IMG/VR virus record: IMGVR_UViG_3300020201_000026
Location: 1-54,968 of that record
DNA length: 54,968 nucleotides
Strand: one strand, 5' to 3'
From: a virus
Lineage: Duplodnaviria > Caudoviricetes
Position numbers and translations under genes: made by a program. Numbering within the stretch: the stretch's first letter is position 1; every line of letters starts with the position of its first letter. Under the pieces are notes generated by a model that saw only the letters and a list, made by a program, of their open reading frames with translations, searched no databases and was not told where the DNA came from. Below, piece by piece: positions 1 to 12,552 of this stretch.

Positions 1-32
1 CGCGTTTTTTTTGTTATTTGTCCTTTTTTCAT
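1..32 (-). CDS. N-terminus of a gene truncated by the window edge; paralog of 4584-4886
   Basis: ATG at 32-30 reads MKKGQITKKT, matching KKGQITKKT near the start of ORF 4584-4886. It has the A-rich leader typical of this arm. Confidence 0.65.
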   Translation of the reverse strand, partial: MKKGQITKKT

Positions 33-61
33 TTGTTTGGTTTAAAGGGTTAATAAAATAT

Positions 62-517
62 CTATGAAAGATACGGGTTTACGAACAAGCTACTAAAAGT
101 AACATATGACCCGTTTTCTAACCTAAACACGACTATATCGTCTTTTACAGTTAAAAATGTCGCTTTCATTTCAACAATTTTATTCCACACGCTGTCAATC
201 ATCTCAAGCGTAGGAAAATACTTGAAAGACAACAAGTGCTTTTGTCCGTTTTGTTCGCACAAGTCCCATTCAACATCGTATTTGTGGGCATGTTGAATCT
301 TCAACACTTCCCACGAATCGCTGTGTGCCTTGTCGGTCATTCCTCTGGTGTATCTTCCAAACGGAATCAAAACTTGGGTTATTGTGTTTGCCTTAGTGTT
401 GTCATAATTTATTTCAATGACCCCATAAGGTTTTTTGTAGTGAAGTCCTCTAATGGTTATTTTTGGACAGGTTCTTTCTCCGTCCAACACCCATTTTGAA
501 CTTAATATGTTTGTCAT
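62..517 (-). CDS. hypothetical protein (151 aa)
   Basis: ORF with leader TTTAAACCAATTAAAAAATG, co-oriented with the arm; no motif recognised. Confidence 0.75.
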   Translation of the reverse strand: MTNILSSKWVLDGERTCPKITIRGLHYKKPYGVIEINYDNTKANTITQVLIPFGRYTRGMTDKAHSDSWEVLKIQHAHKYDVEWDLCEQNGQKHLLSFKYFPTLEMIDSVWNKIVEMKATFLTVKDDIVVFRLENGSYVTFSSLFVNPYLS

Positions 518-540
518 TTTTTAATTGGTTTAAATGTAAA

Positions 541-568
541 TAAGCAGTTTACACTCTTGCTTAGGAGT
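541..568 (-). ncRNA. small H-type pseudoknot, copy 1 of 3
   Basis: Minus strand ACUC-C-UAAGCA-A-GAGU-GUAAAC-UGCUUA. Stem ACUC/GAGU; loop UAAGCA pairs with UGCUUA. The stem covaries with copies at 8794 and 9133. Confidence 0.6.
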
Positions 569-626
569 TGTTTTAAACCTCTTTATAAAAGCGGTTTAAA
601 ACGTAATAGGTGAGGACAATACTATA

Positions 627-962
627 CTACCTATTACTGTATTTTCTCCAATTGTATAGTTGTGGGGCAAGTAAGTGGTAGCAATATTTAGCCACCGCCC
701 AAGTGTCTTTTTTCCAATTGTATTTTTCTTTGTCAAGTAATCTTGAACAGAACTGAGCTACATAACAGGAGTTTTCCTCCCAATCAAAGCAGTTGTTTTC
801 AATCTGCCAAGCTATTAAATCATAGCTTGAATGTGCATACAACCACGCGTATTGTTGCCCGTGTTCAATGAACGCTAAGTGGACATTTAACTTTCCATTT
901 TCAAATCGCAATCGCCATTCATCACAAGGCACTGTTGTTAGGTTTTCTAATTCAATTATCAT
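627..962 (-). CDS. hypothetical protein (111 aa)
   Basis: ORF with A-rich leader; aromatic-rich; no motif recognised. Confidence 0.75.
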   Translation of the reverse strand: MIIELENLTTVPCDEWRLRFENGKLNVHLAFIEHGQQYAWLYAHSSYDLIAWQIENNCFDWEENSCYVAQFCSRLLDKEKYNWKKDTWAVAKYCYHLLAPQLYNWRKYSNR

Positions 963-1024
963 GTTTTTGTTTTTTGGGTTAAAAATTAATAAAATAGGGC
1001 TTACTTAAAAGCAAACCCTATCAG

Positions 1025-3844
1025 TTATCCTAACATTGCCTGACGAAGCATCACTGCTAAATCAGATTCAGACTCTGTTTCGTCTTTTCTGTCTTCAATT
1101 AGTTGGTTAAGCAACCTGACAGCTTGCACGTGAAATACATACATACTCAAAGAGCTATCAAACTCCTTTAACACGTCTTCAAGGGCTTCACAAAGAAGGC
1201 TTTGTTTTGCGGTTAAAGAGCGGTAGTCTATCTCATCAAGATATGCGTTTATCTCACCAATGGAGTGTTCAAACTCTTGGCAATAGTAGAAGTCTAACGC
1301 CATAGTTTTTAAACTCTCCTTTTCTGACTCAGCAATATCCCTTTGGTCAGTCTTTCTCCAGTAAAAGGCATCTTTTTCTTGTGCTATGTACTTATACACA
1401 TCAGCACTTAACAAAGAATTGTACTCCACTGTAAAAGAGTCAATTAGTTCTTCAACAGACAACTTGAAATCTACTTTTACGCAGGCTTTGTAGCTGTTTA
1501 TCACTAATCTTTCTTTTTCTATTTCCTCCTGCTTTTTTTCATTAGCGACATAGTCGTAATACAGCTGAGATAACTCAGTGTGAGACAGAACACCTTGTCC
1601 TTTATAACAATAAAAGACAACAACCCCTCCTAATTCTAAAGGAAGAGTGAGAAAGTTAGACAAAGAACTAACTGCAAGCAATATCCTTTCTGCTGAGTAT
1701 GACACAGAACTACCTTTGTAGCTGTCTGGTAGTATCTCGTTAACAAAGGAGTAGTGCTTTTTAATATCCTCAATAGATTTCTCTAAAGATTCAATTATCA
1801 GCTCTTTTTGTGATTCTACACTGGCAAAAGTAGGCACAGTTTTAATAACTAATACCACTTTATCTTCTCCTAACAATTCAAGTTTGGTATTAACCACTTT
1901 GATTTGGGATTGATAGTTAGGTAAATAGATACTGCTCACTGCTTTTGCGTGAATCTCCTCTGTTGTTAAAGGAGTAGAAATCCTCATTTCAGCGTTGCCC
2001 ATTGCATATACCGTAACAGTTTCACTATCAGCGTTAAACACTCTTTCTTTAGTGAATAAAGAAGGGTCAAGCTTGTAAACAAGCGCAACTACTGCCTCGT
2101 TAAAATACGTAACGTTAGTAAGAAAAGTAGCTCTTCCAATACTTGTTACTGTACCTGTTGTGTAGGAGAAATAACTCCCTTCAGAAGCAGCCGACACTTT
2201 CGTATCAAATGCTACCCTGTATGCTTTACAGCCTTTAGCTGCAACCACAACAACGGAACACAATTGCTCAGTTACTTGCTGAGTGTCTGTCATATACCCT
2301 AATTGGCTTAGAATAATAGACAGCTTTCTGTATCCCTCAAGGGCTTCTTGCTCCGCCATATAAAAAGTCATTGACTCTTTTGCTTGGCGTACTTCTTTGT
2401 TGTTCTTTTTAGCCACGATGCTGTCGTACAACTTTATATTGGCGTAAGAAGTAGACACAAACTTTGAAAAAAACTTGTTAGTTTTATCTTCGTCTGCTTT
2501 TTTGTCTATGACTGTTCCAAATTTAGTGTACGCCTCAATGGCAAGAAACTTTGCAACTTCTTTGGCGATGCCAAGTTCCATTGCATAATAGAGAATTAGA
2601 GCTTGGTTATACTCTAACATCGTCAATAGAGGAGCAATCCTTTTACCTTTTACAGTAAAACTATTGTTGCTTTCTATTACGTCATTTGCACGAAGCTCTT
2701 CAAGAACCTCGTTGTACTCCATTTGGTTATATGGAGTTATCAGATTTTCGTTATCTACACCTTGTGATAAAGTGTTAACAACAAACTCTCTTGCGTCCAA
2801 CAAGTCAATGGCTCTTAATGGATACTGTTGACGAGAATCGTAAGAACCTATAAGAGTGTATTTGTAAGGCATAGAACCTTGTTCAAGTTGCATTCTTCCA
2901 ATACGCCCAGCAGCTTGCGCCACCTCAGCTTTTGAAACGCTGTAAGTAGTCAATTGCTTGACTCCTTTAACGTTTACCATATGTCGTATTTGACCTAAGT
3001 CAATCACAGACTTTATCCATTTAGGATACGTTAAGCCTGTACGACCTATGTTAGTTGCAATGATAACAGCTTGTCCTTCTTTATGCTGGAGATAAGCCAT
3101 ACGGTCTTTACTGTCCATTTCACCGTGCATAAGATACACAGTTACTTTAGATGAAGCCTTAGTCGCATATGCTTCAACAATAGCTTGTACTTCAGCTATC
3201 TCCTTCTTTCCAGGACAGATAACTATGAAGTTGTACCCTTCTTCAAGTCTTGTATTGACAGTTGAAGTTAGGTTTTGAGAAGTTATCACACTCCCAAACA
3301 CAGGCGAGCCTTCTACACTGAAGCTTGTAGTAGTAGCTTCCACTACATTACAGTTTAGATAAGAAGCAAACATTGTACCTTGCACAGTCGCAGACATAAT
3401 CAAGACTTTACAGCCTAATTCTCTTGCTTTGTACAAGTTGATAATAGTGTTAAGCTCTAATTCGTGAGCTTCATCTATTACCACTAAAGTAGATGACATA
3501 TCCTCTTTGCCTAATTTAGACGTGAGGATTCCTTCGGTCATATACACAACAGAAGCATTAGCATTGCTGCTTGTACCTCTTCCTGTGATATGCCCTATCA
3601 TATCGGGTTGTCCACAGCCTTCAATAGCTGTAGCAGAGTTGCTTTCTGCTTGGCTAATGCGTGGCTGCGAGACATACACTTTGCTTATACCCTCTACGGC
3701 AGTCAGCAAGTGCAGTGGCAAGTATATGGTCTTACCTGTCCCTGTAGGACTTGTAAGAACACATCTGCCAACAGTGTTGAGCTGAGAGGCAATGCTCTCG
3801 GCATAACGAGCTATAGGCAGCTCTTTAAACCATTTTTTCTCCAT
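1025..3844 (-). CDS. DEAH/RHA-family (HrpA/HrpB-like) SF2 helicase with long C-terminal extension
   Basis: Motifs in order: I SPTGTGKT, Ia SQPRI, Ib TEGIL, II DEAHE, III SAT, IV PGKKEI, V ATNIGRTGLT, VI QAAGRIGR. Confidence 0.9.
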   Translation of the reverse strand: MEKKWFKELPIARYAESIASQLNTVGRCVLTSPTGTGKTIYLPLHLLTAVEGISKVYVSQPRISQAESNSATAIEGCGQPDMIGHITGRGTSSNANASVVYMTEGILTSKLGKEDMSSTLVVIDEAHELELNTIINLYKARELGCKVLIMSATVQGTMFASYLNCNVVEATTTSFSVEGSPVFGSVITSQNLTSTVNTRLEEGYNFIVICPGKKEIAEVQAIVEAYATKASSKVTVYLMHGEMDSKDRMAYLQHKEGQAVIIATNIGRTGLTYPKWIKSVIDLGQIRHMVNVKGVKQLTTYSVSKAEVAQAAGRIGRMQLEQGSMPYKYTLIGSYDSRQQYPLRAIDLLDAREFVVNTLSQGVDNENLITPYNQMEYNEVLEELRANDVIESNNSFTVKGKRIAPLLTMLEYNQALILYYAMELGIAKEVAKFLAIEAYTKFGTVIDKKADEDKTNKFFSKFVSTSYANIKLYDSIVAKKNNKEVRQAKESMTFYMAEQEALEGYRKLSIILSQLGYMTDTQQVTEQLCSVVVVAAKGCKAYRVAFDTKVSAASEGSYFSYTTGTVTSIGRATFLTNVTYFNEAVVALVYKLDPSLFTKERVFNADSETVTVYAMGNAEMRISTPLTTEEIHAKAVSSIYLPNYQSQIKVVNTKLELLGEDKVVLVIKTVPTFASVESQKELIIESLEKSIEDIKKHYSFVNEILPDSYKGSSVSYSAERILLAVSSLSNFLTLPLELGGVVVFYCYKGQGVLSHTELSQLYYDYVANEKKQEEIEKERLVINSYKACVKVDFKLSVEELIDSFTVEYNSLLSADVYKYIAQEKDAFYWRKTDQRDIAESEKESLKTMALDFYYCQEFEHSIGEINAYLDEIDYRSLTAKQSLLCEALEDVLKEFDSSLSMYVFHVQAVRLLNQLIEDRKDETESESDLAVMLRQAMLG

Positions 3845-3867
3845 TGTTTTATGTTTTTAAAGGTTTG

Positions 3868-3919
3868 TGAATAAGATTGGATTTGAACCAATTCTCCATA
3901 GGAGCAACCTTGCTTATTC
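3868..3919 (-). ncRNA. 52-nt tRNA-like element lacking a D-stem and anticodon loop
   Basis: Minus strand: acceptor GAAUAAG/CUUAUUC plus discriminator A; T-arm AUUGG-UUCAAAU-CCAAU; linker CAAGGUUG containing GG; mini hairpin CUCC-UAU-GGAG. Confidence 0.7.
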
Positions 3920-3924
3920 AATAA

Positions 3925-3953
3925 AAGTAGGGGCTACAAGAAGCAACCCCTTA
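3925..3953 (-). terminator. post-stop hairpin (terminator or processing site)
   Basis: Minus strand GGGGUUGC-UUCUU-GUAGCCCC followed by UACUUUU, just after the stop of 3957-4379. A similar hairpin lies at ~993-1020. Confidence 0.45.
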
Positions 3954-3956
3954 TAA

Positions 3957-4379
3957 CTAAAACATCTCTCTCCACTGTACGTGTTGAAAGACCGTTGTTT
4001 TGGTAACACTCCCGTCGGGGTTTACCAGCTCAACGGACTTTCTTTCGGTGGTTGACTGAATGCACACAAGAGAGGTATGTGCGTTTTTGTAGTGGGCATA
4101 CAAGTTAGCCCACATTGTCAGGGTAGGCTCACCTGTGCAATAAAAGTGAGTTGCCTCTTCCATTATTGCTTCTGAGACTATCCTCAGAGCAAGCAACTGT
4201 ATTTCTTCTAAAGTTGCTGTTGCTGAAATGGCTGACATTTGAGCTTGCAACTCAGGGTCTACCTCTTTCAAGGTAACAATTGAGTCTTCGTGGTCTTTGC
4301 CAAATTGCGAGTTAAATCCTTCAACTTGAGACTCTGTCAAAACGTGGCTAAACGCGACAAATAACTTCTTGTTTTTCAT
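3957..4379 (-). CDS. csx20: Csx20-like CARF-related protein, putative ring nuclease / anti-CRISPR
   Basis: N-terminal LFVAFSHVLTESQ, central G-E-P-T-L-T, and C-terminal STTERKSVE...DGSVTKTTVFQHVQWR match my recollection of the Csx20 pattern (FSHxLTxxQ ... STTxR ... K.s.F.HvrFR). Confidence 0.75.
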   Translation of the reverse strand: MKNKKLFVAFSHVLTESQVEGFNSQFGKDHEDSIVTLKEVDPELQAQMSAISATATLEEIQLLALRIVSEAIMEEATHFYCTGEPTLTMWANLYAHYKNAHTSLVCIQSTTERKSVELVNPDGSVTKTTVFQHVQWREMF

Positions 4380-4510
4380 ACTTTTATTTTTAAAGGTTTT
4401 AGCAACGATGCACCTTTATCCATTTGTTTCGCACACCCGTCCTGTGTGCTACATCTACCTCGTAGATGAGTTTATAAAGGGTTAGATACAACCTTTATAA
4501 ACTGACTTTG

Positions 4511-4542
4511 CAAAGTTAGTGAAATAACTTCGCATTTGCAAA
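4511..4542 (-). promoter_or_regulatory. Bacteroidota housekeeping-sigma promoter driving csx20-like and helicase genes
   Basis: Minus strand TTTG (4542-4539), 20-nt spacer, TAACTTTG (4518-4511): the -33/-7 consensus TTTG-N19-21-TAnnTTTG. It sits just downstream of a terminator. Confidence 0.75.
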
Positions 4543-4549
4543 CAAATTA

Positions 4550-4580
4550 AAAAGCCTTCCAATTAAATCGGAAGGCTTTT
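4550..4580. terminator. intrinsic terminator (bidirectional-looking)
   Basis: AAAAGCCTTCC-N9-GGAAGGCTTTT perfect inverted repeat 3 nt after the stop of 4584-4886. A related hairpin lies at 9710-9737. Confidence 0.75.
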
Positions 4581-4583
4581 GGG

Positions 4584-4886
4584 TTAAAATGTTGCTAAGT
4601 AAGCTCTCCTTGCCACAGATTCATTCAAGTTTAACCATACGAGGTACTCCTCGTTGGTCATGTCTTGAATGAAGATATATTTTATGCAACTTCTTGCCCC
4701 ACGAGAGCCATAATACGCTTCTTTTACTTCACTTGTGTCTTGTAGCCAATGGCTAAGGGGAGTCTCCTTAGATGTGGAGCAATTAAGCTCCAATAAATCA
4801 CTGAGATACAATTTACCTATTGACCCACTTCTGCGAATTGGGTAATTTGTTTTTTTTGTTATTTGCCCTTTTTTTGACTTTGTCAT
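4584..4886 (-). CDS. hypothetical protein (100 aa)
   Basis: ORF; N-terminus shared with the truncated gene at 1-32. Confidence 0.75.
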   Translation of the reverse strand: MTKSKKGQITKKTNYPIRRSGSIGKLYLSDLLELNCSTSKETPLSHWLQDTSEVKEAYYGSRGARSCIKYIFIQDMTNEEYLVWLNLNESVARRAYLATF

Positions 4887-4930
4887 ACGTTTAAATTGTT
4901 TAAATTGTTAATAAAAAACAGTACGTTTAA

Positions 4931-4970
4931 AAAACTCTTATCAACAGTATGTCTTGGTTGATAAGAATTT
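4931..4970 (-). terminator. hairpin with U-tail after 4975-5487
   Basis: Minus strand AAAAUUCUUAUCAAC-loop-GUUGAUAAGAGUUUUU, with a G-U wobble only on the minus strand. Confidence 0.55.
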
Positions 4971-4974
4971 TGAA

Positions 4975-5487
4975 TTATTTTGTGAGGAGAAAATGACTGT
5001 TTGCTTGTGTTTTGTATAACACAAAACAGTCATTTGCCGCTAAGGCTGTCCCTGAATTGCTCCCTTTCTCCTCAATAAAATATTGGCGAGTTTCAAAGAA
5101 CACAAGGGTATCTTCTCCTTCTTTTTGAAAGACTTGGAGCATTTGTCCTTTGTCAGTCCCTACTTGGTCTTCCCAATCCTTTCTACAAGATAAGCCCTCG
5201 TAGATATGTTGGTTTATGTGATGAAACTCACACGCCATTGGCAGTGTGATTTCTTTTCTGTTTACCAAAAATGTCTCTGGATTGATTTCAAAGGACACCT
5301 TGTATTCGTATGGACTACCCTCCGAGTAGTCGTCCTTTGCAGAAATCTCATACGGCTCTGAGTTACTCGCAAACCCAATAACTAGTTCGTCGTGATAGCT
5401 TACACTTGCCATTAAGTGCTTGCCGCCCTCAATGAGGGTCTCGCCTGTTATGGCGTTTTTTATTAAAATTTCCGTGAAGTTTGACAT
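4975..5487 (-). CDS. hypothetical acidic protein (170 aa)
   Basis: ORF; no motif recognised. Confidence 0.75.
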   Translation of the reverse strand: MSNFTEILIKNAITGETLIEGGKHLMASVSYHDELVIGFASNSEPYEISAKDDYSEGSPYEYKVSFEINPETFLVNRKEITLPMACEFHHINQHIYEGLSCRKDWEDQVGTDKGQMLQVFQKEGEDTLVFFETRQYFIEEKGSNSGTALAANDCFVLYKTQANSHFLLTK

Positions 5488-5497
5488 TGTTTTTGGA

Positions 5498-5545
5498 TTT
5501 AGGGTTTAGGGTTTAGGGTTTAGGGTTTAGGGTTTAGGGTTTAGG
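5498..5545 (+). repeat. (TTTAGGG)6 + TTTAGG tandem repeat
   Basis: Read directly; lies 10 nt upstream of the ATG of the minus-strand gene 4975-5487. Confidence 0.95.
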
Positions 5546-5610
5546 CTACGATTAAGAAAAAGGCTCTTTAATTTAATTGTAGAACCCTTTTCTAATTTAA
5601 TTTTAGCGCA

Positions 5611-5982
5611 CTATACTATTGAAAACCTGCTGATGTACAGGTTTTCTTCTTGGTCTTGGTCTTCGTCTTCAAGAACCCATTCGTGGGCTATGGTTTTGAT
5701 GCGTGGGAATCTTGCGATTCTTCCACACTCAACTCCAAAAACGTACAACTCAATAGTGCATTGAGCTGTCAAGTCTACTCTCAACCCACCATATTGGACG
5801 GCATACGCCCAGTTTATATTTGTTTCTAACAGAAACAAGGCAACCTCATATTGCACTTGTTCTGTGATTGGTGTGAACTTGTTAATCCCTCCATAAATGG
5901 AGTTTTTTAACTGTTCTACCATTTCTTCCTTTTCTTCTTGGTCAGCAGAGTTGTAATTTCTGCTGAATTCATAATTGTCCAT
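5611..5982 (-). CDS. hypothetical protein, paralog of 9747-10133
   Basis: YEVALFLLETNINWAYAVQYGGLRV aligns with WEIAFCLLKASPEWAYAVQFGKLNV. Confidence 0.8.
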   Translation of the reverse strand: MDNYEFSRNYNSADQEEKEEMVEQLKNSIYGGINKFTPITEQVQYEVALFLLETNINWAYAVQYGGLRVDLTAQCTIELYVFGVECGRIARFPRIKTIAHEWVLEDEDQDQEENLYISRFSIV

Positions 5983-6009
5983 AGTTTTTTGTTTTGTTTA
6001 ATGGTTTAA

Positions 6010-6041
6010 TAAAACAGGACTTACATCTTACGACTGCCTGT
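6010..6041 (-). repeat. 32-nt intergenic hairpin repeat, copy 1 of 3
   Basis: TAAAACAGGACTTACATCTTACGACTGCCTGT; near-identical copies at 6705-6736 and 7875-7906. Confidence 0.9.
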
Positions 6042-6050
6042 TGTTAGTTT

Positions 6051-6680
6051 TTAGATAGACTTCAGCATTTCTGCGAGTTTCTCTAACGTTTGAAGTCTTT
6101 CCGATACTACGGATTGAGCAGCGTAGATGACGGATTTCAACGCACTTGGCAGGGAGGTTACGGCATGAGGGGTCATGTCATAGTCCCCGAATAAAACACC
6201 AAGAGCAACCTCGTAAGGGAGCTTTGTAAAGTCTTCCCCTCCAAAACCGTTAAAGATGTTAGCCAAAGATACTCGCTCCATTTCTTCTCCATTGATTTTT
6301 GCAGAGGTTACTATTTCCCCTGAAACTATCCTTTCAGCAACCGTTTTGCAAACGAATGCAAAAAGGTTGAGTTCACCTCCATAACAATCACTGTCGTCTG
6401 CCAAATGGTTTTCAATAGCAACATTATTAATGGTTATTGTTGCTACTTCTACTACGCTGTACTTTTCCCCCCAAAAACTTGCTTGTGCGAGACTTGCAAG
6501 CATGGGTTGTCCGTTAGGGTTGAATAACCCCTCTATAATAGTTTGCGACAAAACTACATCACTGTTTATTGCCGCTTGTGTCTTGGTCTTTGCCATTAAA
6601 ACAAAAGCTGTTGCTTCTGCTTCGGTGGGGAAGAAGTACTCATTTGTTTTTTGAGTACGTTGGTTTTTGATAGTGAACAT
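6051..6680 (-). CDS. hypothetical protein, tandem paralog of 6740-7360
   Basis: Aligns end to end with the neighbouring gene (MFxIKN..KTNEYFF, NGxPMxAxL, LPYxVAxGVLFGDY, RLQTLExLAxMLKSI). Confidence 0.85.
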   Translation of the reverse strand: MFTIKNQRTQKTNEYFFPTEAEATAFVLMAKTKTQAAINSDVVLSQTIIEGLFNPNGQPMLASLAQASFWGEKYSVVEVATITINNVAIENHLADDSDCYGGELNLFAFVCKTVAERIVSGEIVTSAKINGEEMERVSLANIFNGFGGEDFTKLPYEVALGVLFGDYDMTPHAVTSLPSALKSVIYAAQSVVSERLQTLEKLAEMLKSI

Positions 6681-6704
6681 TTTTTTACTTGTTTAAAAGG
6701 TTAA

Positions 6705-6736
6705 TAAAACAGGACTTACATCTTGCGACTGCCTGT
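6705..6736 (-). repeat. 32-nt intergenic hairpin repeat, copy 2 of 3
   Basis: TAAAACAGGACTTACATCTTGCGACTGCCTGT. Confidence 0.9.
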
Positions 6737-6739
6737 GTG

Positions 6740-7360
6740 TTAAATAGATTTTAGCATTTTTGCTAAATCTTCTAACGTTTGAAGTCTTTGCGATACTACT
6801 CTTTGAGCGGCGTAAAAGATTGATTCCAATGCGCTTTTCAATGCCATTGCTGGGTGAGATTTTGTTTTGTAATCTCCAAACAAAACCCCACAGGCAACGC
6901 TGTAAGGAAGCTTTGTGGGGTCTTCCTCCCCAAAGTCGTTAAAGATACTTATGAGCGAAACCCGCTCTTTTTCCTCTCCGTTCACTTGAACGGAAATGAC
7001 ACTCTCCCCCAATATTATCATTTCTTGAACTTTTTTTGAAATAAAATCAGAGAGCTTTCCCCCCAAAAATTCGCCACTGTCGTCCGCCAAGTCGTTGTCA
7101 ATGGCAACTCCATTGATAAGCACCTTTGCACTTTCAATGACTTCGTATTTTTGCTCCAAAAACGAAGCTTTTTCAAGGAACGCCGACATTGGCTTTCCAT
7201 TAGGGTGGAACACCCCTTGCACTATTTCACTCACGTCCCCTCTGTCAATGACAGATTGTGTTTTTTCTTTTGCCATTACGAGAAAAGCGGTAGCTTCTTC
7301 GGCAGTTGCAAAAAAATACTCGTTGGTCTTTCCTGACCGTTTGTTTTTTATACTAAACAT
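6740..7360 (-). CDS. hypothetical protein, tandem paralog of 6051-6680
   Basis: Aligns end to end with 6051-6680. Confidence 0.85.
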   Translation of the reverse strand: MFSIKNKRSGKTNEYFFATAEEATAFLVMAKEKTQSVIDRGDVSEIVQGVFHPNGKPMSAFLEKASFLEQKYEVIESAKVLINGVAIDNDLADDSGEFLGGKLSDFISKKVQEMIILGESVISVQVNGEEKERVSLISIFNDFGEEDPTKLPYSVACGVLFGDYKTKSHPAMALKSALESIFYAAQRVVSQRLQTLEDLAKMLKSI

Positions 7361-7412
7361 AGTGTTTTTTTGTTTAAAAGGCTTAATAAAATAGCACGTT
7401 TATCTTAAACGT

Positions 7413-7866
7413 ACAAATAAACACTAAAACCACGAGCAATCTTGGCTCTCTGGTTGCAACACCAAACTCACACACGGTGAGGAACTATGTGTGGTCTTAG
7501 GGTTTAAGGTAGGTTTGAGCCTATAACTTTCTTGCTGTTACACAAGCCTGCTCAAACAGGATTAAGTTTTGCTAAACTTACAAAATAACATTGGACAACT
7601 TTCATTTAGCTAAATGAAGGCTTATGTTGTCCCAATGCCTCTTATCGGTCAATTACAAAATGATAGATTCTAATTCTTGACCTTTTACAGTCCCCCGTTC
7701 ATTACTCGGGCTATTTCGGAGAATAGCAAAAAACAGACGAGGCTTATGAAGCATTTTCGTGTCTGTCTTACTCCTTACTCAGTTCTAACGTATCTATCAC
7801 AGTTAGAACATATATGCACACCTGTCTTACAGGATTCAACGCTTGCATAATGCGTTATTTATTTGT
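7413..7866 (-). ncRNA. candidate large (~450 nt) structured ncRNA
   Basis: No ORF >=60 aa; termini complementary (ACAAATAAA/TTTATTTGT); at least 8 internal hairpins; two candidate loop-loop pseudoknots. Confidence 0.6.
7445..7488 (-). repeat. 44-nt repeat (two-hairpin / three-way junction module), copy 1 of 2
   Basis: Matches 8571-8614 at 43 of 44 positions; the single difference is in a hairpin loop. Confidence 0.9.
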
Positions 7867-7874
7867 TTATGAGA

Positions 7875-7906
7875 TAAAACAGGACTTACATCTTGCGAAT
7901 GCCTGT
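7875..7906 (-). repeat. 32-nt intergenic hairpin repeat, copy 3 of 3
   Basis: TAAAACAGGACTTACATCTTGCGAATGCCTGT. Confidence 0.9.
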
Positions 7907-7908
7907 TG

Positions 7909-8433
7909 TTACTTGATTTGGTGGGTTTTACACCACCCTGATTTTTTTATTGCCAAAAGGCGTAAGTAATCGGAAGAGTAGGGGTTGTCATATCCTGACG
8001 ACCACTGGTCGTCATACCCTGAGGCCCAATGAGAGTTCCTCGTGAAAGAGAAACCCAATGCCAAACTCTTTAGAATCTTTAAATGTTCCTCTCTGTCAAA
8101 AGAGGTTATTACCTGTAAGCGGTCGCAATGCAGTGAGATTTCAGCCTCCAATTTGCTGGTGCAGGAGCTTCCTTTCCAGCTATGACCCCAGCTAATCATG
8201 CCACTCCATTTTTTAAATCGTTCCGCCCATTTCTTGCAGAACGGTTCCCAGCCAGTGGCTTTGGTCTTCCCAGAAACACAAACAGTCGTCCCCGACGATA
8301 GGTTGTACGTAATGGTAACCTTGTACCGCTCTTTGTTGCGGTATAAAGTTGCAATATGATATTCAATGTACGAGATTGAATTTCGTACATTGACAGTCGC
8401 TACGGGCGTTGCAAATAATTGGATTGCTATCAT
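7909..8433 (-). CDS. hypothetical protein (174 aa, Trp/Ser-rich)
   Basis: ORF with AACAAAAAATG leader. Confidence 0.75.
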   Translation of the reverse strand: MIAIQLFATPVATVNVRNSISYIEYHIATLYRNKERYKVTITYNLSSGTTVCVSGKTKATGWEPFCKKWAERFKKWSGMISWGHSWKGSSCTSKLEAEISLHCDRLQVITSFDREEHLKILKSLALGFSFTRNSHWASGYDDQWSSGYDNPYSSDYLRLLAIKKSGWCKTHQIK

Positions 8434-8570
8434 TTTTTGTTCTGCTTACTCAATGCAGAAACACTCTGTCTTTGTCCCGAACGGGAAACAGGTGTTAGCA
8501 GTTTCTCGTAAATTCTACGAGGAAGATTTAGAGTTTTCTCTCTTTTGTTATCTACCGTACAATAATCACA

Positions 8571-8614
8571 GCTCTCTGGTTGCAACACCAAACTCACACC
8601 CGGTGAGGAACTAT
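8571..8614 (-). repeat. 44-nt repeat, copy 2 of 2
   Basis: GCTCTCTGGTTGCAACACCAAACTCACACCCGGTGAGGAACTAT. Confidence 0.9.
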
Positions 8615-8712
8615 ACTATACACTGCAAAAATGCAACATCACACCTAAGCCGAAGCTCTCCCTTTAGATTTTTCAGGGATTAAGGTGCCAACCTCCTAAG
8701 AGGTATTTAAAT

Positions 8713-8821
8713 ACGTCTTTCTTGTTCTTTCACTGTCGCATTAACCCCCGTAGGAGAAAAGACGTTGCAACAGCGAGAGGTTTTTCCTCTATCAAAGCAG
8801 TTTATAGTCCTGCTTAGGACT
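8713..8821 (-). ncRNA. ~110-nt structured repeat (small pseudoknot + hairpin + nested pseudoknot), copy 1 of 2
   Basis: Direct repeat of 9050-9160 with compensatory changes in two stems. Confidence 0.7.
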
Positions 8822-8835
8822 TGCTCTTATCGGGG

Positions 8836-9021
8836 TTAATCCCAATAAGAGCTATGACCCCCTTTTCCATACGCTGCCATACGACAGCCGGGATTTCTTT
8901 TTATTGCAGCCCTTGAGGTCTTTGCAGGGCTTTTCTTTTTGGGACGACAAGCTTTTCTCCTGCCCATTGCTTGACGAGGGTGAAAGTCATTCTTGTCTTC
9001 CACAATCTCGTGGATTTTCAT
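8836..9021 (-). CDS. small basic hypothetical protein (61 aa)
   Basis: K/R-rich ORF with the arm-typical leader TAACCTTAAAAC...ATG, flanked by the 110-nt repeats. Confidence 0.6.
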   Translation of the reverse strand: MKIHEIVEDKNDFHPRQAMGRRKACRPKKKSPAKTSRAAIKRNPGCRMAAYGKGGHSSYWD

Positions 9022-9049
9022 GATGTCTTGTGTTTTAAGGTTAAATAAT

Positions 9050-9160
9050 GCACTTTTCTTGTTCTTTCACTGTCGCATTAACTTCCGTAGAAGAAAAAGT
9101 GCTGCAACAATTAGAGGTTTATTTCCCCTATCAAAGCAGTTTATAGTCCTGCTTAGGACT
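9050..9160 (-). ncRNA. ~110-nt structured repeat, copy 2 of 2
   Basis: Direct repeat of 8713-8821 with compensatory stem changes. Confidence 0.7.
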
Positions 9161-9174
9161 TTTGACGATTAATC

Positions 9175-9606
9175 CTACAGGGCTTTAACCCAGTACTCCA
9201 TTGAACTTAACCATGTAACACACATCATTGGACTAAGTTCCTCCGCCAGCGATGTCCAATCAGGGGCATACTGATTGTCCCCTTTTGTGGGGTAGCCCAG
9301 TTGGGCATACCCGTACAAATATGTCCACATTTGAAGTCGCACGTCCTCAAAAGAGCAGTAAAGGTGGGTTGCCCCCACTTTTGTTGCCTCTTTCACGATT
9401 TCAAGAGCCAAAGCTTTCACTTGTACAAGTGCGAGCTTGGCACTTTCTGTGTCAAATCCTATCATGGTTGCAATTTCTGTACCCTCGTACCCTTGAGCAT
9501 CTTCATGGTGGCAACCATTGATATGGCTGCCGTACTGTAAGCGGAACATGTCCTCTTGGCGAGGGGTCAATACAGTTTGAGACGCTACGAATAATATCTT
9601 TTTCAT
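9175..9606 (-). CDS. divergent paralog of the Csx20-like protein
   Basis: LFVASQTVLTPRQ vs LFVAFSHVLTESQ; LALEIVKEA..GATHLYC vs LALRIVSEA..EATHFYC; LQMWTYLY vs LTMWANLY. The C-terminal STT/HV segment is lost. Confidence 0.7.
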   Translation of the reverse strand: MKKILFVASQTVLTPRQEDMFRLQYGSHINGCHHEDAQGYEGTEIATMIGFDTESAKLALVQVKALALEIVKEATKVGATHLYCSFEDVRLQMWTYLYGYAQLGYPTKGDNQYAPDWTSLAEELSPMMCVTWLSSMEYWVKAL

Positions 9607-9629
9607 ATTTTTATTTATTTAAGGTTTAT

Positions 9630-9707
9630 TTTCTTGCGAACCACCGCTTGCTCTATGTTTCCATAGACTTGTGAGACTCTCGTATTCCGAAGAACTTAGA
9701 GGTAGTT
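9630..9707 (-). ncRNA. GAAA-tetraloop / 11-nt-receptor RNA element, copy 1 of 2
   Basis: Receptor variant UCUAAG/UACGA capped by UUCG; hairpin UCUAUG-GAAA-CAUAGA; closing stem AACUAC/GUGGUU. Aligns without gaps to 10160-10237. Confidence 0.7.
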
Positions 9708-9709
9708 GT

Positions 9710-9737
9710 AAAAGCCCCCCAGTTAATCGGAGGGCTT
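9710..9737 (-). terminator. probable intrinsic terminator
   Basis: AAGCCC...GGGCUUUU hairpin after the stop of 9747-10133; resembles 4550-4580. Confidence 0.6.
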
Positions 9738-9746
9738 GTTGTTACT

Positions 9747-10133
9747 TTATTTGAGGAAGAATGTGTTTTCTACTACTTCGTCGCCGAAGTAATCTCGTTC
9801 GTCCCCTGTGTAAGGGACGGTTTTAGAGGTACAACCAATTGACGTTGTAGGAAACTTAATGTCCCCTAAATCCACTCCGCAAGTTGACAGCGAAACTACT
9901 CCGTTCTTTCCTATATACACGTTCAATTTGCCGAATTGAACAGCATACGCCCATTCTGGCGACGCTTTCAATAGGCAAAACGCTATTTCCCACTTGATGT
10001 CGTAGGATATTATGTCAAAATGTCCGTTTGCCATTTTCAGCGATTTGGCAAGGCTTTTAGCCATCTTGCCTCTTTCTGTAACTGTGCCGTATACGAAACG
10101 GCTTGTGTATACGTCTTTTTTTGAAACTTTCAT
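9747..10133 (-). CDS. hypothetical protein, paralog of 5611-5982
   Basis: Shared WAYAVQ(F/Y)G core. Confidence 0.8.
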   Translation of the reverse strand: MKVSKKDVYTSRFVYGTVTERGKMAKSLAKSLKMANGHFDIISYDIKWEIAFCLLKASPEWAYAVQFGKLNVYIGKNGVVSLSTCGVDLGDIKFPTTSIGCTSKTVPYTGDERDYFGDEVVENTFFLK

Positions 10134-10159
10134 AATACTTATTTATTTATTGAGTTTAA

Positions 10160-10237
10160 TTTCTTGCGAACTACCGCTTGCATTACTTTTCAGTAACCTT
10201 GTGAGACTCCCATATCCTACTGGACTTAGGGGAAACC
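10160..10237 (-). ncRNA. GAAA-tetraloop / 11-nt-receptor RNA element, copy 2 of 2
   Basis: Canonical receptor CCUAAG/UAUGG; hairpin GUUACU-GAAA-AGUAAU. Confidence 0.7.
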
Positions 10238-10293
10238 GATTGTATATGTACCTCAACGCCGAAATCCCAATGACGGATTCGTGTGAGAAACAA

Positions 10294-10389
10294 GAAATAG
10301 TTACATACTGTATGGGTATGTAGCTATTTCATTAGTTACGTGTACGGTTAAACACGTAACATATACCCTAAACTTTTAATTTAGGGTAT
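10294..10389. repeat. three consecutive inverted repeats
   Basis: GAAATAGTTACATAC/GTATGTAGCTATTTC, GTTACGTGT/ACACGTAAC and ATACCCTAAA/TTTAGGGTAT. Confidence 0.85.
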
Positions 10390-10394
10390 TGTTT

Positions 10395-11063
10395 TTATTT
10401 TGGCACACTTGCCGTGTTTGCTAATTTAGCTTGTTCTTTTGCTAATTTAGCTTGTTCTTTTGCCTCATCTTTGGTTTTTTCTGTGTTGTTTTCTTTTGTA
10501 ACCGCAATAGGGGCAATAAAGCCTCCTATTGCCCAAAATAGGCTCTTTGATGACTTTTCTTGCCACACTGTGTTCTCCCGTACAGTTGCAAGTTGTTCGT
10601 GGTAGCTAATACCAACCTTCATTAATGAAGGAATAGCGTTAGCAATGTTCAAATACTTTGTACCTGAACTTGTTGTAACCAAAACGGTCTCCATGTCGCA
10701 TGTTACACCCTCTAATAGGGTAGCAACATTTTTGATTGAAACGTTGATAAGTTCGTTGCCTCTTGTGAAGCAACCAACCGTGAGTGAAAGTACTGCAACC
10801 GCAGTAAAATCACTCTTAACGAGCGCGTTGTTTGCAACCTCTATGGTAGCAATTGATAGTTTCTTTTCTATCAATTTTGTGTCATACGCATTGTCTACTT
10901 CACTGTGTGTGAAGTTAGATAAGACACTGCCTTCTAAGAGGTAGTGCCTTTTAATGGGTATGATAAACTCCGACGTGGCACGTAGTGCCAAATTAGAGGG
11001 TATTAATCTATCAACCATTGGTATAGGGCTATTTTGTAAACGGTTGCACGGTTGCAGTCGCAT
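10395..11063 (-). CDS. hypothetical protein, first gene of the left arm; start uncertain (ATG 11063, ATG 11018 or TTG 10874)
   Basis: Open frame with a C-terminal 21-bp tandem repeat (AKEQAKL x2). The 5' part is hairpin-rich, and TTG 10874 has the A-rich context typical of this arm. Confidence 0.6.
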   Translation of the reverse strand: MRLQPCNRLQNSPIPMVDRLIPSNLALRATSEFIIPIKRHYLLEGSVLSNFTHSEVDNAYDTKLIEKKLSIATIEVANNALVKSDFTAVAVLSLTVGCFTRGNELINVSIKNVATLLEGVTCDMETVLVTTSSGTKYLNIANAIPSLMKVGISYHEQLATVRENTVWQEKSSKSLFWAIGGFIAPIAVTKENNTEKTKDEAKEQAKLAKEQAKLANTASVPK

Positions 11064-11668
11064 ATAGCCAAAGGCAGGAGGGGTGAATAGACATCAGACT
11101 CAATACTCCTTCTTAAAAAAATATTTTTTTTGCTGGGGTCAGTTGTCATTTTGCCTTGTGTGTTAGTTTGCTGTGTGTTAGTTTTACTGTAGAGGGGGGT
11201 ATTTGAGGGGGTGTTGTTTTATGTTTTTCTTTGGGTGGTTTCTTTGGCTATGGTATTATAGTTATAAGCTCTATCAAGGGGCAAGCCCCTTAAAAAGTTG
11301 TTTTTGGAGTACCTGATCCAGTCCTTTTTTGGGGAGAGTGTAGTATCTTTTGTTTAATGTGGAGATAGACACGTTCCACTACAATATAAATAAGGGTATG
11401 CTTTTACTGCAAAATGTTTATGCGGATTATCAGCCAGAGCTTCGTATCAGAACCTTATGAAAGAGGATGCGAAGATGTTTATGCCTTTAGCACTGAAGGA
11501 TTACCGCAAGAGGGGAGTTTCAACCGCCCATTTTGTTGCCCTTTTATCTTAATACCTTTCGTTGCCAAAAGGTAACCGAGAATCTAAAAAAGAATCGTTA
11601 TATATATAACTTATTTTTGACATAAAAGGTTCAGTTATTTTGAAAATAAATTAAAAATATTTTTTATT

Positions 11669-11700
11669 TTTGGTAGTATCGTTTTGTTGTGTTATATTTG
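11669..11700 (+). promoter_or_regulatory. Bacteroidota-type promoter for the tRNA / right arm
   Basis: TTTG (11669-72), 20-nt spacer, TATATTTG (11693-700), 8 nt before the tRNA. Confidence 0.75.
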
Positions 11701-11708
11701 CACAACAA

Positions 11709-11781
11709 GTCCTTATAGCTTAACTGGAAAAGCGTTACCCTTCTAAGGTAAGGAGTACAAGTTCAAATCTTGTTAGGGACA
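11709..11781 (+). tRNA. tRNA-Arg(TCT)
   Basis: Acceptor GTCCTTA/TAGGGAC+A; D-arm GCTT/AAGC; anticodon arm TTACC-CTTCTAA-GGTAA; T-arm ACAAG-TTCAAAT-CTTGT; CCA not encoded. Confidence 0.92.
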
Positions 11782-11796
11782 CTAATAGATTATAAT

Positions 11797-12552
11797 ATGA
11801 AAAGGAAGGACGATGTTTCGTTTGATGCTGTTACGCATTCCTATTTCAACACGGATACGGGAGTGGAGTACACTCCTGTTACGTCTTGGATAGCGAAGCA
11901 CAAGAGGGAGTTTGTTGCAGATGAGAGCAAGACCAGAGCAACTCAGAGGAAGCTTGGCTTAACTCACGAGGAGGTTCTTTCTATGTGGGAGGACAAGAAG
12001 AACAAGGCAGGACAGAGGGGGTCGTATATCCACAACACTATTGAGGACTACTTGGTTTCTGGTAGGGTAGACATGGGGTATAATCCTTTAAACAAGGACA
12101 TACCTTTTACTTATTTAAAAATGCTTAGAAGGAAAAGAGCTAAACTGTGGATAGAGGATATGCTCTGGTACAAGCAGAGGGGGATAGCTGGTCAGAGTGA
12201 TTTGGTGTTGGAGTACAAGAGGCACGTTGAAATAACAGACTGGAAGACCAATGAGAAAGAAACGGAGGCACTATCAAAAGTAATGTGGTACACTGAGAAC
12301 TTCAAGGAGTTGTTTGTAGACCTTCCCCAGACTTCTTTAAACGAGTATGTTATACAGCTTGTGTTATATGGCATAATGGCGAGTTATTATTACGGCAAGC
12401 CTTGTAGGAAGCATACGGTGGTACACATCTTTAACGGGTATAGGGAGATACACCTTGACAAGTTGAAAATGGAATACTACAATGGGCGAGGGCAAAAGAT
12501 AAAAACAACAGTGGTAGCATACGTCAAGAAGAAACTAAAACCTTTATTTTAA
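11797..12552 (+). CDS. PD-(D/E)XK (RecB/Cas4-like) nuclease
   Basis: Motifs GSYIH..IE, IAGQSDLV, ITDWKT, Y..QL..Y. ATG 11797 chosen because TTG 11770 lies inside the tRNA. Confidence 0.85.
   Translation: MKRKDDVSFDAVTHSYFNTDTGVEYTPVTSWIAKHKREFVADESKTRATQRKLGLTHEEVLSMWEDKKNKAGQRGSYIHNTIEDYLVSGRVDMGYNPLNKDIPFTYLKMLRRKRAKLWIEDMLWYKQRGIAGQSDLVLEYKRHVEITDWKTNEKETEALSKVMWYTENFKELFVDLPQTSLNEYVIQLVLYGIMASYYYGKPCRKHTVVHIFNGYREIHLDKLKMEYYNGRGQKIKTTVVAYVKKKLKPLF

Follow-up and report, generated by a model that had tools for sequence, protein, structure and literature searches.

A Duplicated Pseudoknot in a Phage Early Region as a Candidate RNA-Processing Module

New classes of self-cleaving ribozymes are rare. 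The mRNA leader of phage T4 gene 32 contains an H-type pseudoknot tens of nucleotides (nt) upstream of the AUG, followed by an A/U-rich stretch, and this pseudoknot is the nucleation site for the autoregulatory protein. The promoter-early stem-loop cassettes of T4-type phages, which consist of a DNA promoter and a terminator hairpin, are short regulatory elements that border shuffled small early genes with mosaic flanks. According to the review PMC6765202, self-cleaving classes that are unrelated to one another occur at the same genomic locations in bacteria and phages, and the last natural ribozyme classes were found by examining the neighbors in places where known ribozymes sit. As described there, twister-sister, pistol, and hatchet were discovered by this shared-location approach. 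PMC10879173 indicates that theta ribozymes keep helix P4, which may be short, and that the catalytic C is the first nucleotide of joiner J4/2. Here, a pseudoknot with the helix order of hepatitis delta virus (HDV)-like and theta ribozymes is described, two copies of which are found among the early genes on the minus strand of IMG/VR virus record IMGVR_UViG_3300020201_000026 (an uncultured phage; Caudoviricetes). The window is the whole stretch of 54,968 nt that was analyzed. The pseudoknot is tentatively interpreted as a new cis-acting RNA-processing module that would probably cleave itself near its 5′ side.

Fold and Conservation of the Two Pseudoknot Copies

A preliminary description of this DNA, made from the letters alone, had reported a duplicated nested pseudoknot. 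The sequences quoted in that description are present on the minus strand at the places given, and both copies can be drawn as one fold (Table 1). The helix order read from the sequence is P1-P2-P3-P3′-P1′-P2′ in each copy, with 9–10 base pairs (bp) in P1, 8 bp in P2, and 4 bp in P3, which is capped by the loop UACG. The fold itself covers the 63 nt first described, but the true repeat is longer (8713–8821 and 9050–9160). The repeated unit of approximately 110 nt per copy is composed of a 27-nt motif, the spacer UGAU, a small hairpin (hairpin B), and the pseudoknot.

Standard pairs appear in 43 of the 44 cells of a two-row alignment of the copies. Five pairs, four in P2 and one in P3, are changed on both sides with pairing kept, and three others are changed on one side with pairing kept. 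When the 3′ partners were shifted by 1–3 columns as a control, 38–52% of the cells were paired and 0–1 double changes were obtained. In a shuffle control, which is weak with only two rows, the observed value was reached in 22 of 500 shuffles. The differences between the copies fall at 14 of the 44 paired positions and at 0 of the 19 unpaired positions among the 63 (hypergeometric P = 0.003). The covariation first reported for P2 and P3 was thereby borne out. The linkers, described as invariant, are identical between the copies but vary slightly in strain relatives. Invariance of the joiners between the copies is the pattern expected of a catalytic or binding core and not of a mere stabilizing hairpin.

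A descriptor of the fold was defined as P1 of at least 9 bp, P2 of at least 8 bp, and a P3 hairpin. It matched both strands of the window at these two places only. The same descriptor gave 0–2 matches in each of 20 dinucleotide shuffles of the window, and since these add up to 8 matches, a single fold of this kind is no rarity under chance alone. What counts most as evidence is not one fold by itself but the presence of two homologous copies whose changes compensate each other. Three G.U pairs are present in copy 1 and two in copy 2. The fold is specific to the minus-strand transcript because these pairs would be A.C on the other strand, and minus is the sense strand of all genes from position 1 to about 11,100. 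The pair counts and the G.U pairs agree with the original proposal of a real, strand-specific pseudoknot with HDV-like helix order. The nested part of copy 1 (P1 with P3) is the minimum-free-energy fold, at −21.1 kcal/mol (z = −3.1). Compensating changes, strand specificity, and conservation above that of the flanks, the marks of a structured RNA under selection, are all present.

The helix order is that of the HDV and theta ribozymes, except that P4 is missing. L3 is the 4-nt UACG in both copies, and the strand that follows P1′ starts with AAAG, for which there is no complement, so that P1.1 is not formed. In the place of P4 there is only the 10-nt purine-rich joiner, which is not self-complementary. 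The single C of this joiner is kept in all five distinct sequences of the pseudoknot set, which come from one habitat, and J4/2 cannot be defined around it because P4 is absent. The lack of P1.1, P4, and an HDV-type L3 had been pointed out at the outset, and no HDV-type Rfam model matches at E ≤ 10. Since P1.1 and P4 are absent, the pseudoknot is not an HDV or theta ribozyme. A very reduced but true member of the HDV-like/theta family would account for the matching helix order, for the retained C in the joiner before P2′, and for the G.U pair at the base of P1 in copy 1. This explanation is hardly credible, and the absence of P1.1 and P4 comes close to refuting it. The P1 of 9–10 bp and the lack of an HDV-type Rfam match also speak against it, as do the retention of P4 and the position of the catalytic C given for theta ribozymes in PMC10879173.

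Homologues of the pseudoknot were sought with sequence patterns, proteins, and models of the fold. In IMG/VR, an exact 24-mer scan gave 0 matches, as did a pattern composed of the P3 loop, UUAA, and the start of P1′. With free stems and with the loop and joiners fixed, 4 matches were obtained in IMG/VR, all in A/T-rich coding DNA without the fold. A 1.2-kb query had no match among the GenBank phages, and a protein-anchored search for related viral loci with the open reading frames (ORFs) of 143, 174, and 939 amino acids (aa) found no relative. A covariance model gave weak and incomplete matches in 62 loci plus the window (best 22 bits, inside a 1356-aa ORF) and nothing below E 0.09 in 43 whole virus records. 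In 28 further loci, only strain relatives were matched by this model. The fold descriptor, applied 3′ of the 27-nt motif in other phages, matched 0 of 66 contexts versus 18 of 300 random pieces.

A pattern scan of metagenomes returned 18 loci. Four of these (L075, L085, L087, and L088) hold six copies of the pseudoknot, all from close strain relatives, and the other 14 (11 distinct sequences) are chance matches in coding DNA. Among the differences listed for contigs from other mat runs, there are only strain variants. Conservation outside this genome, on which the preliminary description had staked the fold, was thus found in part: homologues exist, but they are close strain relatives from the same microbial-mat habitat.

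In the strain relatives, the element is 97–100% identical, and the flanking genes are 74–80% identical or replaced. The flanking ORFs of L085 are 74% and 80% identical, and hairpin B2, pseudoknot 2, and leader 2 are identical at 112 of 112 nt, with 28 of 28 nt in the 28-nt leader. Pseudoknot 2 is identical at 63 of 63 nt in L085 and 62 of 63 nt in L087. The motif before pseudoknot 1 is identical at 27 of 27 nt in all four loci. L087 and L075 retain the element behind upstream genes that are unrelated. The frame of the 61-aa ORF between the two copies is open in L085 and L087, with DNA identities of 80% and 93%, respectively. The ORF-free block that follows copy 1 is identical at 139 of 143 nt in L087 and 137 of 143 nt in L088; beyond the block, the identity is 52–54%. 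The element is a conserved cassette border in a mosaic region. One variant of copy 1 in the strain relatives, a change of G to A, turns a U.G pair of P1 into U-A. In L085 and L087, the tail of the motif before copy 2, which is invariant otherwise, has four changes, and the pseudoknot behind that motif is intact; this copy of the motif may be decaying.

The mosaic flanks, and conservation that starts exactly at the 27-nt motif, would also be expected of a repeat that acts as DNA and has no RNA role of its own. Such a repeat could serve in recombination, mark a cassette boundary, or bind a protein, and its stems would be maintained by templated inverted-repeat repair or by chance. The sequence TGTTGCAAC occurs 3 times in intergenic DNA, which is marginal, as 5 of 100 shuffles reach 3. 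This explanation is nevertheless quite improbable. On the opposite strand, the G.U pairs become A.C mismatches, a DNA repeat would not be expected to hold three interleaved helices in which changes compensate, and the differences between the copies avoid every unpaired position.

The 27-nt Motif and the Elements That Follow It

At 9134–9160 the motif has the form A-N-UCCUAAGCA-N-GA-N′-U-N-UAAACUGCUU, and over the window and the other contexts together it is written A-N-UCCUAAGYA-N-GA-N′-U-N-UAAACURCUU. In IMG/VR, 62 stretches were identified by the conserved-letter pattern and 77 by a relaxed pattern. The motif is also present in 12 stretches of genomes and bins labeled as many phyla and in the cultured Synechococcus phage S-CRM01, where it is separated from the preceding tRNA-Tyr by 3 nt and from the following gene g172 by 26 nt. 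Outside the phage lineage described here, there are 80 unique contexts (loci L007–L068 and L089–L124). The motif contains a 4-bp stem in which the pair N/N′ is standard in 80 of 81 unique instances. This pair covaries through all four Watson–Crick types (G-C 50, C-G 19, A-U 6, U-A 3), and the remaining instances are U.G (2) and A.G (1). There is a thin indication that a small H-type pseudoknot may form by pairing between the motif loop and the 3′ tail, the loop–tail pairs being C-G in 56 instances, U.G in 16, U-A in 5, and also C.A in 4.

No Rfam family matches the motif, and a literature search by sequence and topic returned no description of it. A multi-copy promoter for a phage polymerase was rejected because the motif occurs only 1–2 times in each of five complete genomes. 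A sigma-70 or Bacteroidota promoter was rejected on the grounds that there are no conserved boxes upstream and that the hosts span many phyla. A mimic of a CRISPR repeat was likewise rejected, the score being 17–18 bits against a cutoff of 42 and on the other strand.

The elements that begin 0–6 nt from the motif's 3′ end, a position referred to here as the slot, were counted among the 80 unique contexts. Occupants were identified in 15 contexts, 8 of them supported by a tool and 7 by eye only. Two are hatchet ribozymes (92 and 89 bits; Rfam cutoff of 51). One is a type III hammerhead ribozyme (42.4 bits, E 3.8e-6), which is below the cutoff of 48.5, and a truncated twin of it was recognized by eye only. 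A GIR1-like ribozyme at L111:93–282 (minus) scored 55 bits with E 8e-12, below the cutoff of 100. It is located directly after the motif on a viral contig, and its core and branch-site words align well. A literature search returned no relevant publication on lariat-capping ribozymes in bacteriophages. A second GIR1-like element was seen by eye in the slot at L023, where the model gives no match. Four occupants are tRNAs, including an array of motif–6 nt–tRNA units in L124. Five more hammerhead-like elements were identified by eye, and their three stems covary between three sequence types.

Type III hammerhead-like elements, which go unreported by the Rfam hammerhead models, were seen just after the motif at L030, L031, L047, L036, L065, and L060. 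The loop UGUGUG is common among them, and a nonstandard pair or an extra base occurs at the start of stem II. Two large motif-bearing phage records contain HOLDH RNAs above the cutoff (L030:11208–11601 and L047:5207–5601). Subthreshold matches to type-P1 twister are located at L096:4212–4283 and 4638–4692, on the same strand as the motif and 1.5–2 kb upstream of it.

In roughly half of the contexts (45 rows, from a crude ORF call in which a few are false), an ORF starts 8–45 nt after the motif, mostly at 24–29 nt. Other hairpins that have no explanation, or a small terminated RNA, are present in several contexts. Where phages carry a ribozyme in the slot, the order motif–ribozyme–short A/U-rich leader–AUG is paralleled at copy 2 by motif–hairpin B–pseudoknot–28-nt leader–AUG.

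The tRNAs, which are RNase P substrates and fill the slot in 4 of the 80 contexts, raise the possibility that the pseudoknot is a processing site or stabilizer without catalysis. Either a host nuclease, for example RNase P, III, or E, would cut it, or it would block exonucleases and thereby protect the downstream 5′ end. The early region also holds several other structured intergenic repeat families, as expected for polycistronic processing at many sites, and a compact pseudoknot with an A-rich strand would suit a stabilizer. A stabilizer alone, however, would not need 19 invariant unpaired positions. The Rfam families of exonuclease-resistant RNAs and RNase P substrates give no match, and the P2-on-P3 stack is joined through the 5′ strand, which is the mirror image of the acceptor/T arm of tRNA. 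Processing or stabilization without catalysis is considered unlikely.

Genomic Setting of the Repeated Unit

The positions of the parts of the repeated unit and of the adjacent features are presented in Table 1. The two copies of hairpin B differ by an A-U to G.U change in the stem and by 2 nt in the loop. The window is a virus record with an estimated completeness of 33% and encodes terminase, portal, and major head genes. At gathering scores, Rfam identifies one tRNA only in the whole window. Suppression or recoding by this tRNA was rejected, as it is Arg-UCU.

Table 1. Positions of the pseudoknots, their parts, and adjacent features in the window
Feature	Position	Strand	Remark
Pseudoknot copy 1	8713–8775	minus	
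Copy 1 P1 (10 bp)	8775–8766 with 8740–8731	minus	
Copy 1 P2 (8 bp)	8765–8758 with 8720–8713	minus	
Copy 1 single U after P2	8757	minus	
Copy 1 P3 (4 bp)	8756–8753 with 8748–8745	minus	loop UACG 8752–8749
Copy 1 joiner UUAA	8744–8741	minus	between P3′ and P1′
Copy 1 A-rich 10-nt joiner	8730–8721	minus	between P1′ and P2′; single C at 8724
Pseudoknot copy 2	9050–9112	minus	
Copy 2 P1 (9 pairs)	9111–9103 with 9076–9068	minus	outer 9112/9077 is A.G
Copy 2 P2	9102–9095 with 9057–9050	minus	
Copy 2 single U	9094	minus	
Copy 2 P3	9093–9090 with 9085–9082	minus	loop UACG 9089–9086
Copy 2 joiner UUAA	9081–9078	minus	
Copy 2 A-rich joiner	9067–9058	minus	single C at 9061
27-nt boundary motif before pseudoknot 2	9134–9160	minus	exact match
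27-nt boundary motif before pseudoknot 1	8795–8821	minus	identical to the copy before pseudoknot 2
Spacer UGAU, copy 2	9130–9133	minus	
Spacer UGAU, copy 1	8791–8794	minus	
Hairpin B, copy 2	9113–9129	minus	AGGGG-AAAUAAA-CCUCU
Hairpin B, copy 1	8776–8790	minus	AGAGG-AAAAA-CCUCU
A/U-rich 28-nt leader	9022–9049	minus	from pseudoknot 2 to the AUG of the 61-aa ORF
61-aa ORF, very basic	8836–9021	minus	between the two copies
ORF-free block after copy 1	8570–8712	minus	conserved with copy 1; contains the 51-nt repeat that recurs at 7438–7488
Third copy of the 27-nt motif	542–568	minus	without pseudoknot; AUG of ORF 62–517 lies 24 nt downstream

The downstream units differ between the copies. Between the end of copy 2 and the AUG of a very basic ORF there is an A/U-rich leader of 28 nt, and copy 1 is followed by approximately 280 nt without a convincing ORF. 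The arrangement at copy 2 is consistent with a noncatalytic operator or aptamer, that is, a leader binding site for a protein or ligand that would control the translation or stability of the downstream RNA in the manner of the T4 gene 32 leader pseudoknot. The binding protein could be the 61-aa product itself, one factor could co-regulate both copies, and joiners that stay invariant as the stems vary would suit a binding site. On the other side of the balance is the long stretch without an ORF behind copy 1. Neither a terminator nor masking of the start codon, either of which would be expected of a riboswitch expression platform, is visible, and no match was obtained with the pseudoknot riboswitch models (preQ1, SAM-II/V, fluoride, guanidine-III, and others). 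The 61-aa protein belongs to no PHROG or Pfam family, and these family searches provide no link to RNA binding. An operator or aptamer function is considered doubtful.

The ORFs on the opposite strand at 8366–8683 and 8993–9172 have no family match. The 143-aa ORF upstream of copy 2 (9175–9606, minus) provides a weak lead to sigma-70 region 4 or a helix-turn-helix; the atlas score for sigma-70 region 4 is 0.84, below the bar of 0.9, and a PHROG family of unknown function matches at E 0.005. The neighboring 174-aa ORF has no match in the protein-atlas search. A partial tail of the 27-nt motif, together with a hairpin that resembles hairpin B, is located at 769–794 (minus) inside ORF 627–962.

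Further repeats are present in the same region. A pair of structured leaders at 9605–9702 and 10135–10232 (minus), 71% identical, lies directly upstream of ORFs 9175–9606 and 9747–10133. These leaders contain a hairpin with a GAAA loop, in which three pairs are changed on both sides, and another small hairpin with a compensating change. A 57-nt intergenic element occurs five times on the minus strand (965–1021, 5985–6041, 6680–6736, 7362–7418, and 7850–7906), in the order hairpin, U run, and A-rich leader ending at a start codon. It looks like a terminator-plus-leader unit before early genes. A 51-nt repeat of family D7 at 7438–7488 and 8564–8614 (minus), 92% identical, sits in the ORF-free stretches 7419–7908 and 8434–8712, and its core is joined to different flanks in other mat runs. 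These two stretches may be further noncoding RNAs; they have no Rfam match. A tandem run of TTTAGGG (CCCTAAA on the gene strand) is found at 5491–5545, between ORFs 4975–5487 and 5611–5982. At the other end of the record, a 3430-aa ORF (44664–54956, plus) ends 12 nt before the record does. Neither this ORF nor the 1863- and 844-aa ORFs that precede it match a PHROG at E ≤ 0.001.

Proposed Function and Comparison with Known RNAs

The preliminary description had left a new small ribozyme, an aptamer, and a nuclease-blocking fold side by side. The ribozyme reading is raised by the genomic context, because elsewhere the motif precedes hatchet, hammerhead, or GIR1-like ribozymes or tRNAs within 0–6 nt. 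In the proposed mechanism, each copy would constitute an autonomous RNA module of approximately 85 nt, composed of hairpin B and the pseudoknot and transcribed with the minus-strand early genes. Its place is a cassette border, right behind the 27-nt motif, with copy 2 preceding a gene and copy 1 an ORF-free RNA block. In the fold, P1 closes a loop, the 5′ half of which pairs with the 3′ tail as P2, and P3 is stacked on P2. The functional core would be formed by the three kept single-stranded joiners, namely the U, the UUAA, and the A-rich 10-mer with its one C. Self-cleavage would occur near the 5′ side, as in hatchet and HDV-like ribozymes. The cut would release the downstream unit from the RNA that precedes it, and this unit would then have a folded 5′ end without a triphosphate.

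The assignment as an RNA-processing module that probably cleaves itself is thus a tentative one. A more specific proposal is put forward with greater reserve, namely that the pseudoknot, which has the HDV helix order without the HDV core, represents a new small self-cleaving ribozyme class as its first member. It would be one of a group of interchangeable RNA-cutting modules (hatchet, hammerhead, GIR1-like, and tRNA) that follow the motif in phages of many host phyla, and the motif would be a universal RNA pseudoknot by which the borders of units are marked.

Several observations weigh against self-cleavage. Beyond a single phage lineage, the fold was not found (0 of 62 loci, 0 of 43 records, and 0 of 66 contexts). 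No known catalytic core is recognizable in the pseudoknot, and there is little room for an HDV-type active site because a closed UACG tetraloop caps P3. The models for the hammerhead, hatchet, pistol, twister, twister-sister, and hairpin ribozymes do not match at the pseudoknot. Rfam, with the HDV-type models included, gives no relevant match at E ≤ 10 for positions 8500–9400 or at E ≤ 5 for positions 1–12000. RF00008 likewise gives no match at E ≤ 10 in the five records with hammerhead-like elements. The blank Rfam result at the pseudoknot is the weaker as evidence because the same models miss those five elements in other phages. The listed public runs that hold the window are microbial-mat DNA, and none is RNA.

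The remaining points of this kind concern the strain variants and the slot. A change of G to U in copy 1 breaks the outermost pair of P1, a change of A to C in copy 2 of L087 breaks the innermost pair of P1, and the A-rich joiner loses one G in 3 of 4 contigs. From these variants, P1 is therefore secure over 8–9 pairs, and a joiner length of either 9 or 10 nt is tolerated. Ribozymes do not have the slot to themselves, since about half of the contexts are ORF starts and several are unexplained hairpins. The spacer and hairpin B (19–21 nt) lie between the motif and the pseudoknot, and the known ribozymes abut the motif.

The pseudoknot is a small candidate for a new self-cleaving class of the kind that shares a genomic location with known ribozymes. 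The context may matter more than the element, as the motif precedes three ribozyme classes, tRNAs, or gene starts, and the motif provides a handle on the open question of the role of self-cleaving ribozymes in phages and bacteria. Should it prove noncatalytic, the pseudoknot remains a new and well-supported structured RNA of a phage early region.

Among described RNAs, the HDV-like and theta ribozymes have in common with the pseudoknot the order of the helices, the stacking of P2 on P3, and the phage setting. A C is located in the strand that leads into P2′ in both cases, and the cut would be expected at the 5′ edge. The pseudoknot differs in the UACG tetraloop that replaces L3, in the P1 of 9–10 bp, in the 4-nt joiner between P3 and P1′, and in the absence of P1.1 and P4.

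The hatchet and type III hammerhead ribozymes of phages occupy the same slot, between the 27-nt motif and a short A/U-rich leader with its AUG. Their cleavage site is located at, or close to, the 5′ end of the ribozyme itself, and self-cleavage has been shown for those classes. They abut the motif directly (0 nt), whereas the pseudoknot follows a spacer plus hairpin of 19–21 nt, and the folds and cores are unrelated. The GIR1-like (lariat-capping) RNA at L111 also fills the slot, which suggests, as a role for the slot, that it provides the RNA downstream with a special 5′ end. This RNA of approximately 190 nt has a group-I-like core and no likeness in sequence or fold to the 63-nt pseudoknot.

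The T4 gene 32 leader resembles copy 2 in the placement of a pseudoknot and an A/U-rich stretch before an AUG. Copy 1 has no ORF behind it, and the P3 hairpin and the zero-length junction of P1 and P2 are unlike the classical H-type. With the T4-type promoter-early cassettes, the element shares short conserved border elements and mosaic flanks; the conserved unit here is instead an RNA, composed of a pseudoknot motif and a second, larger pseudoknot.

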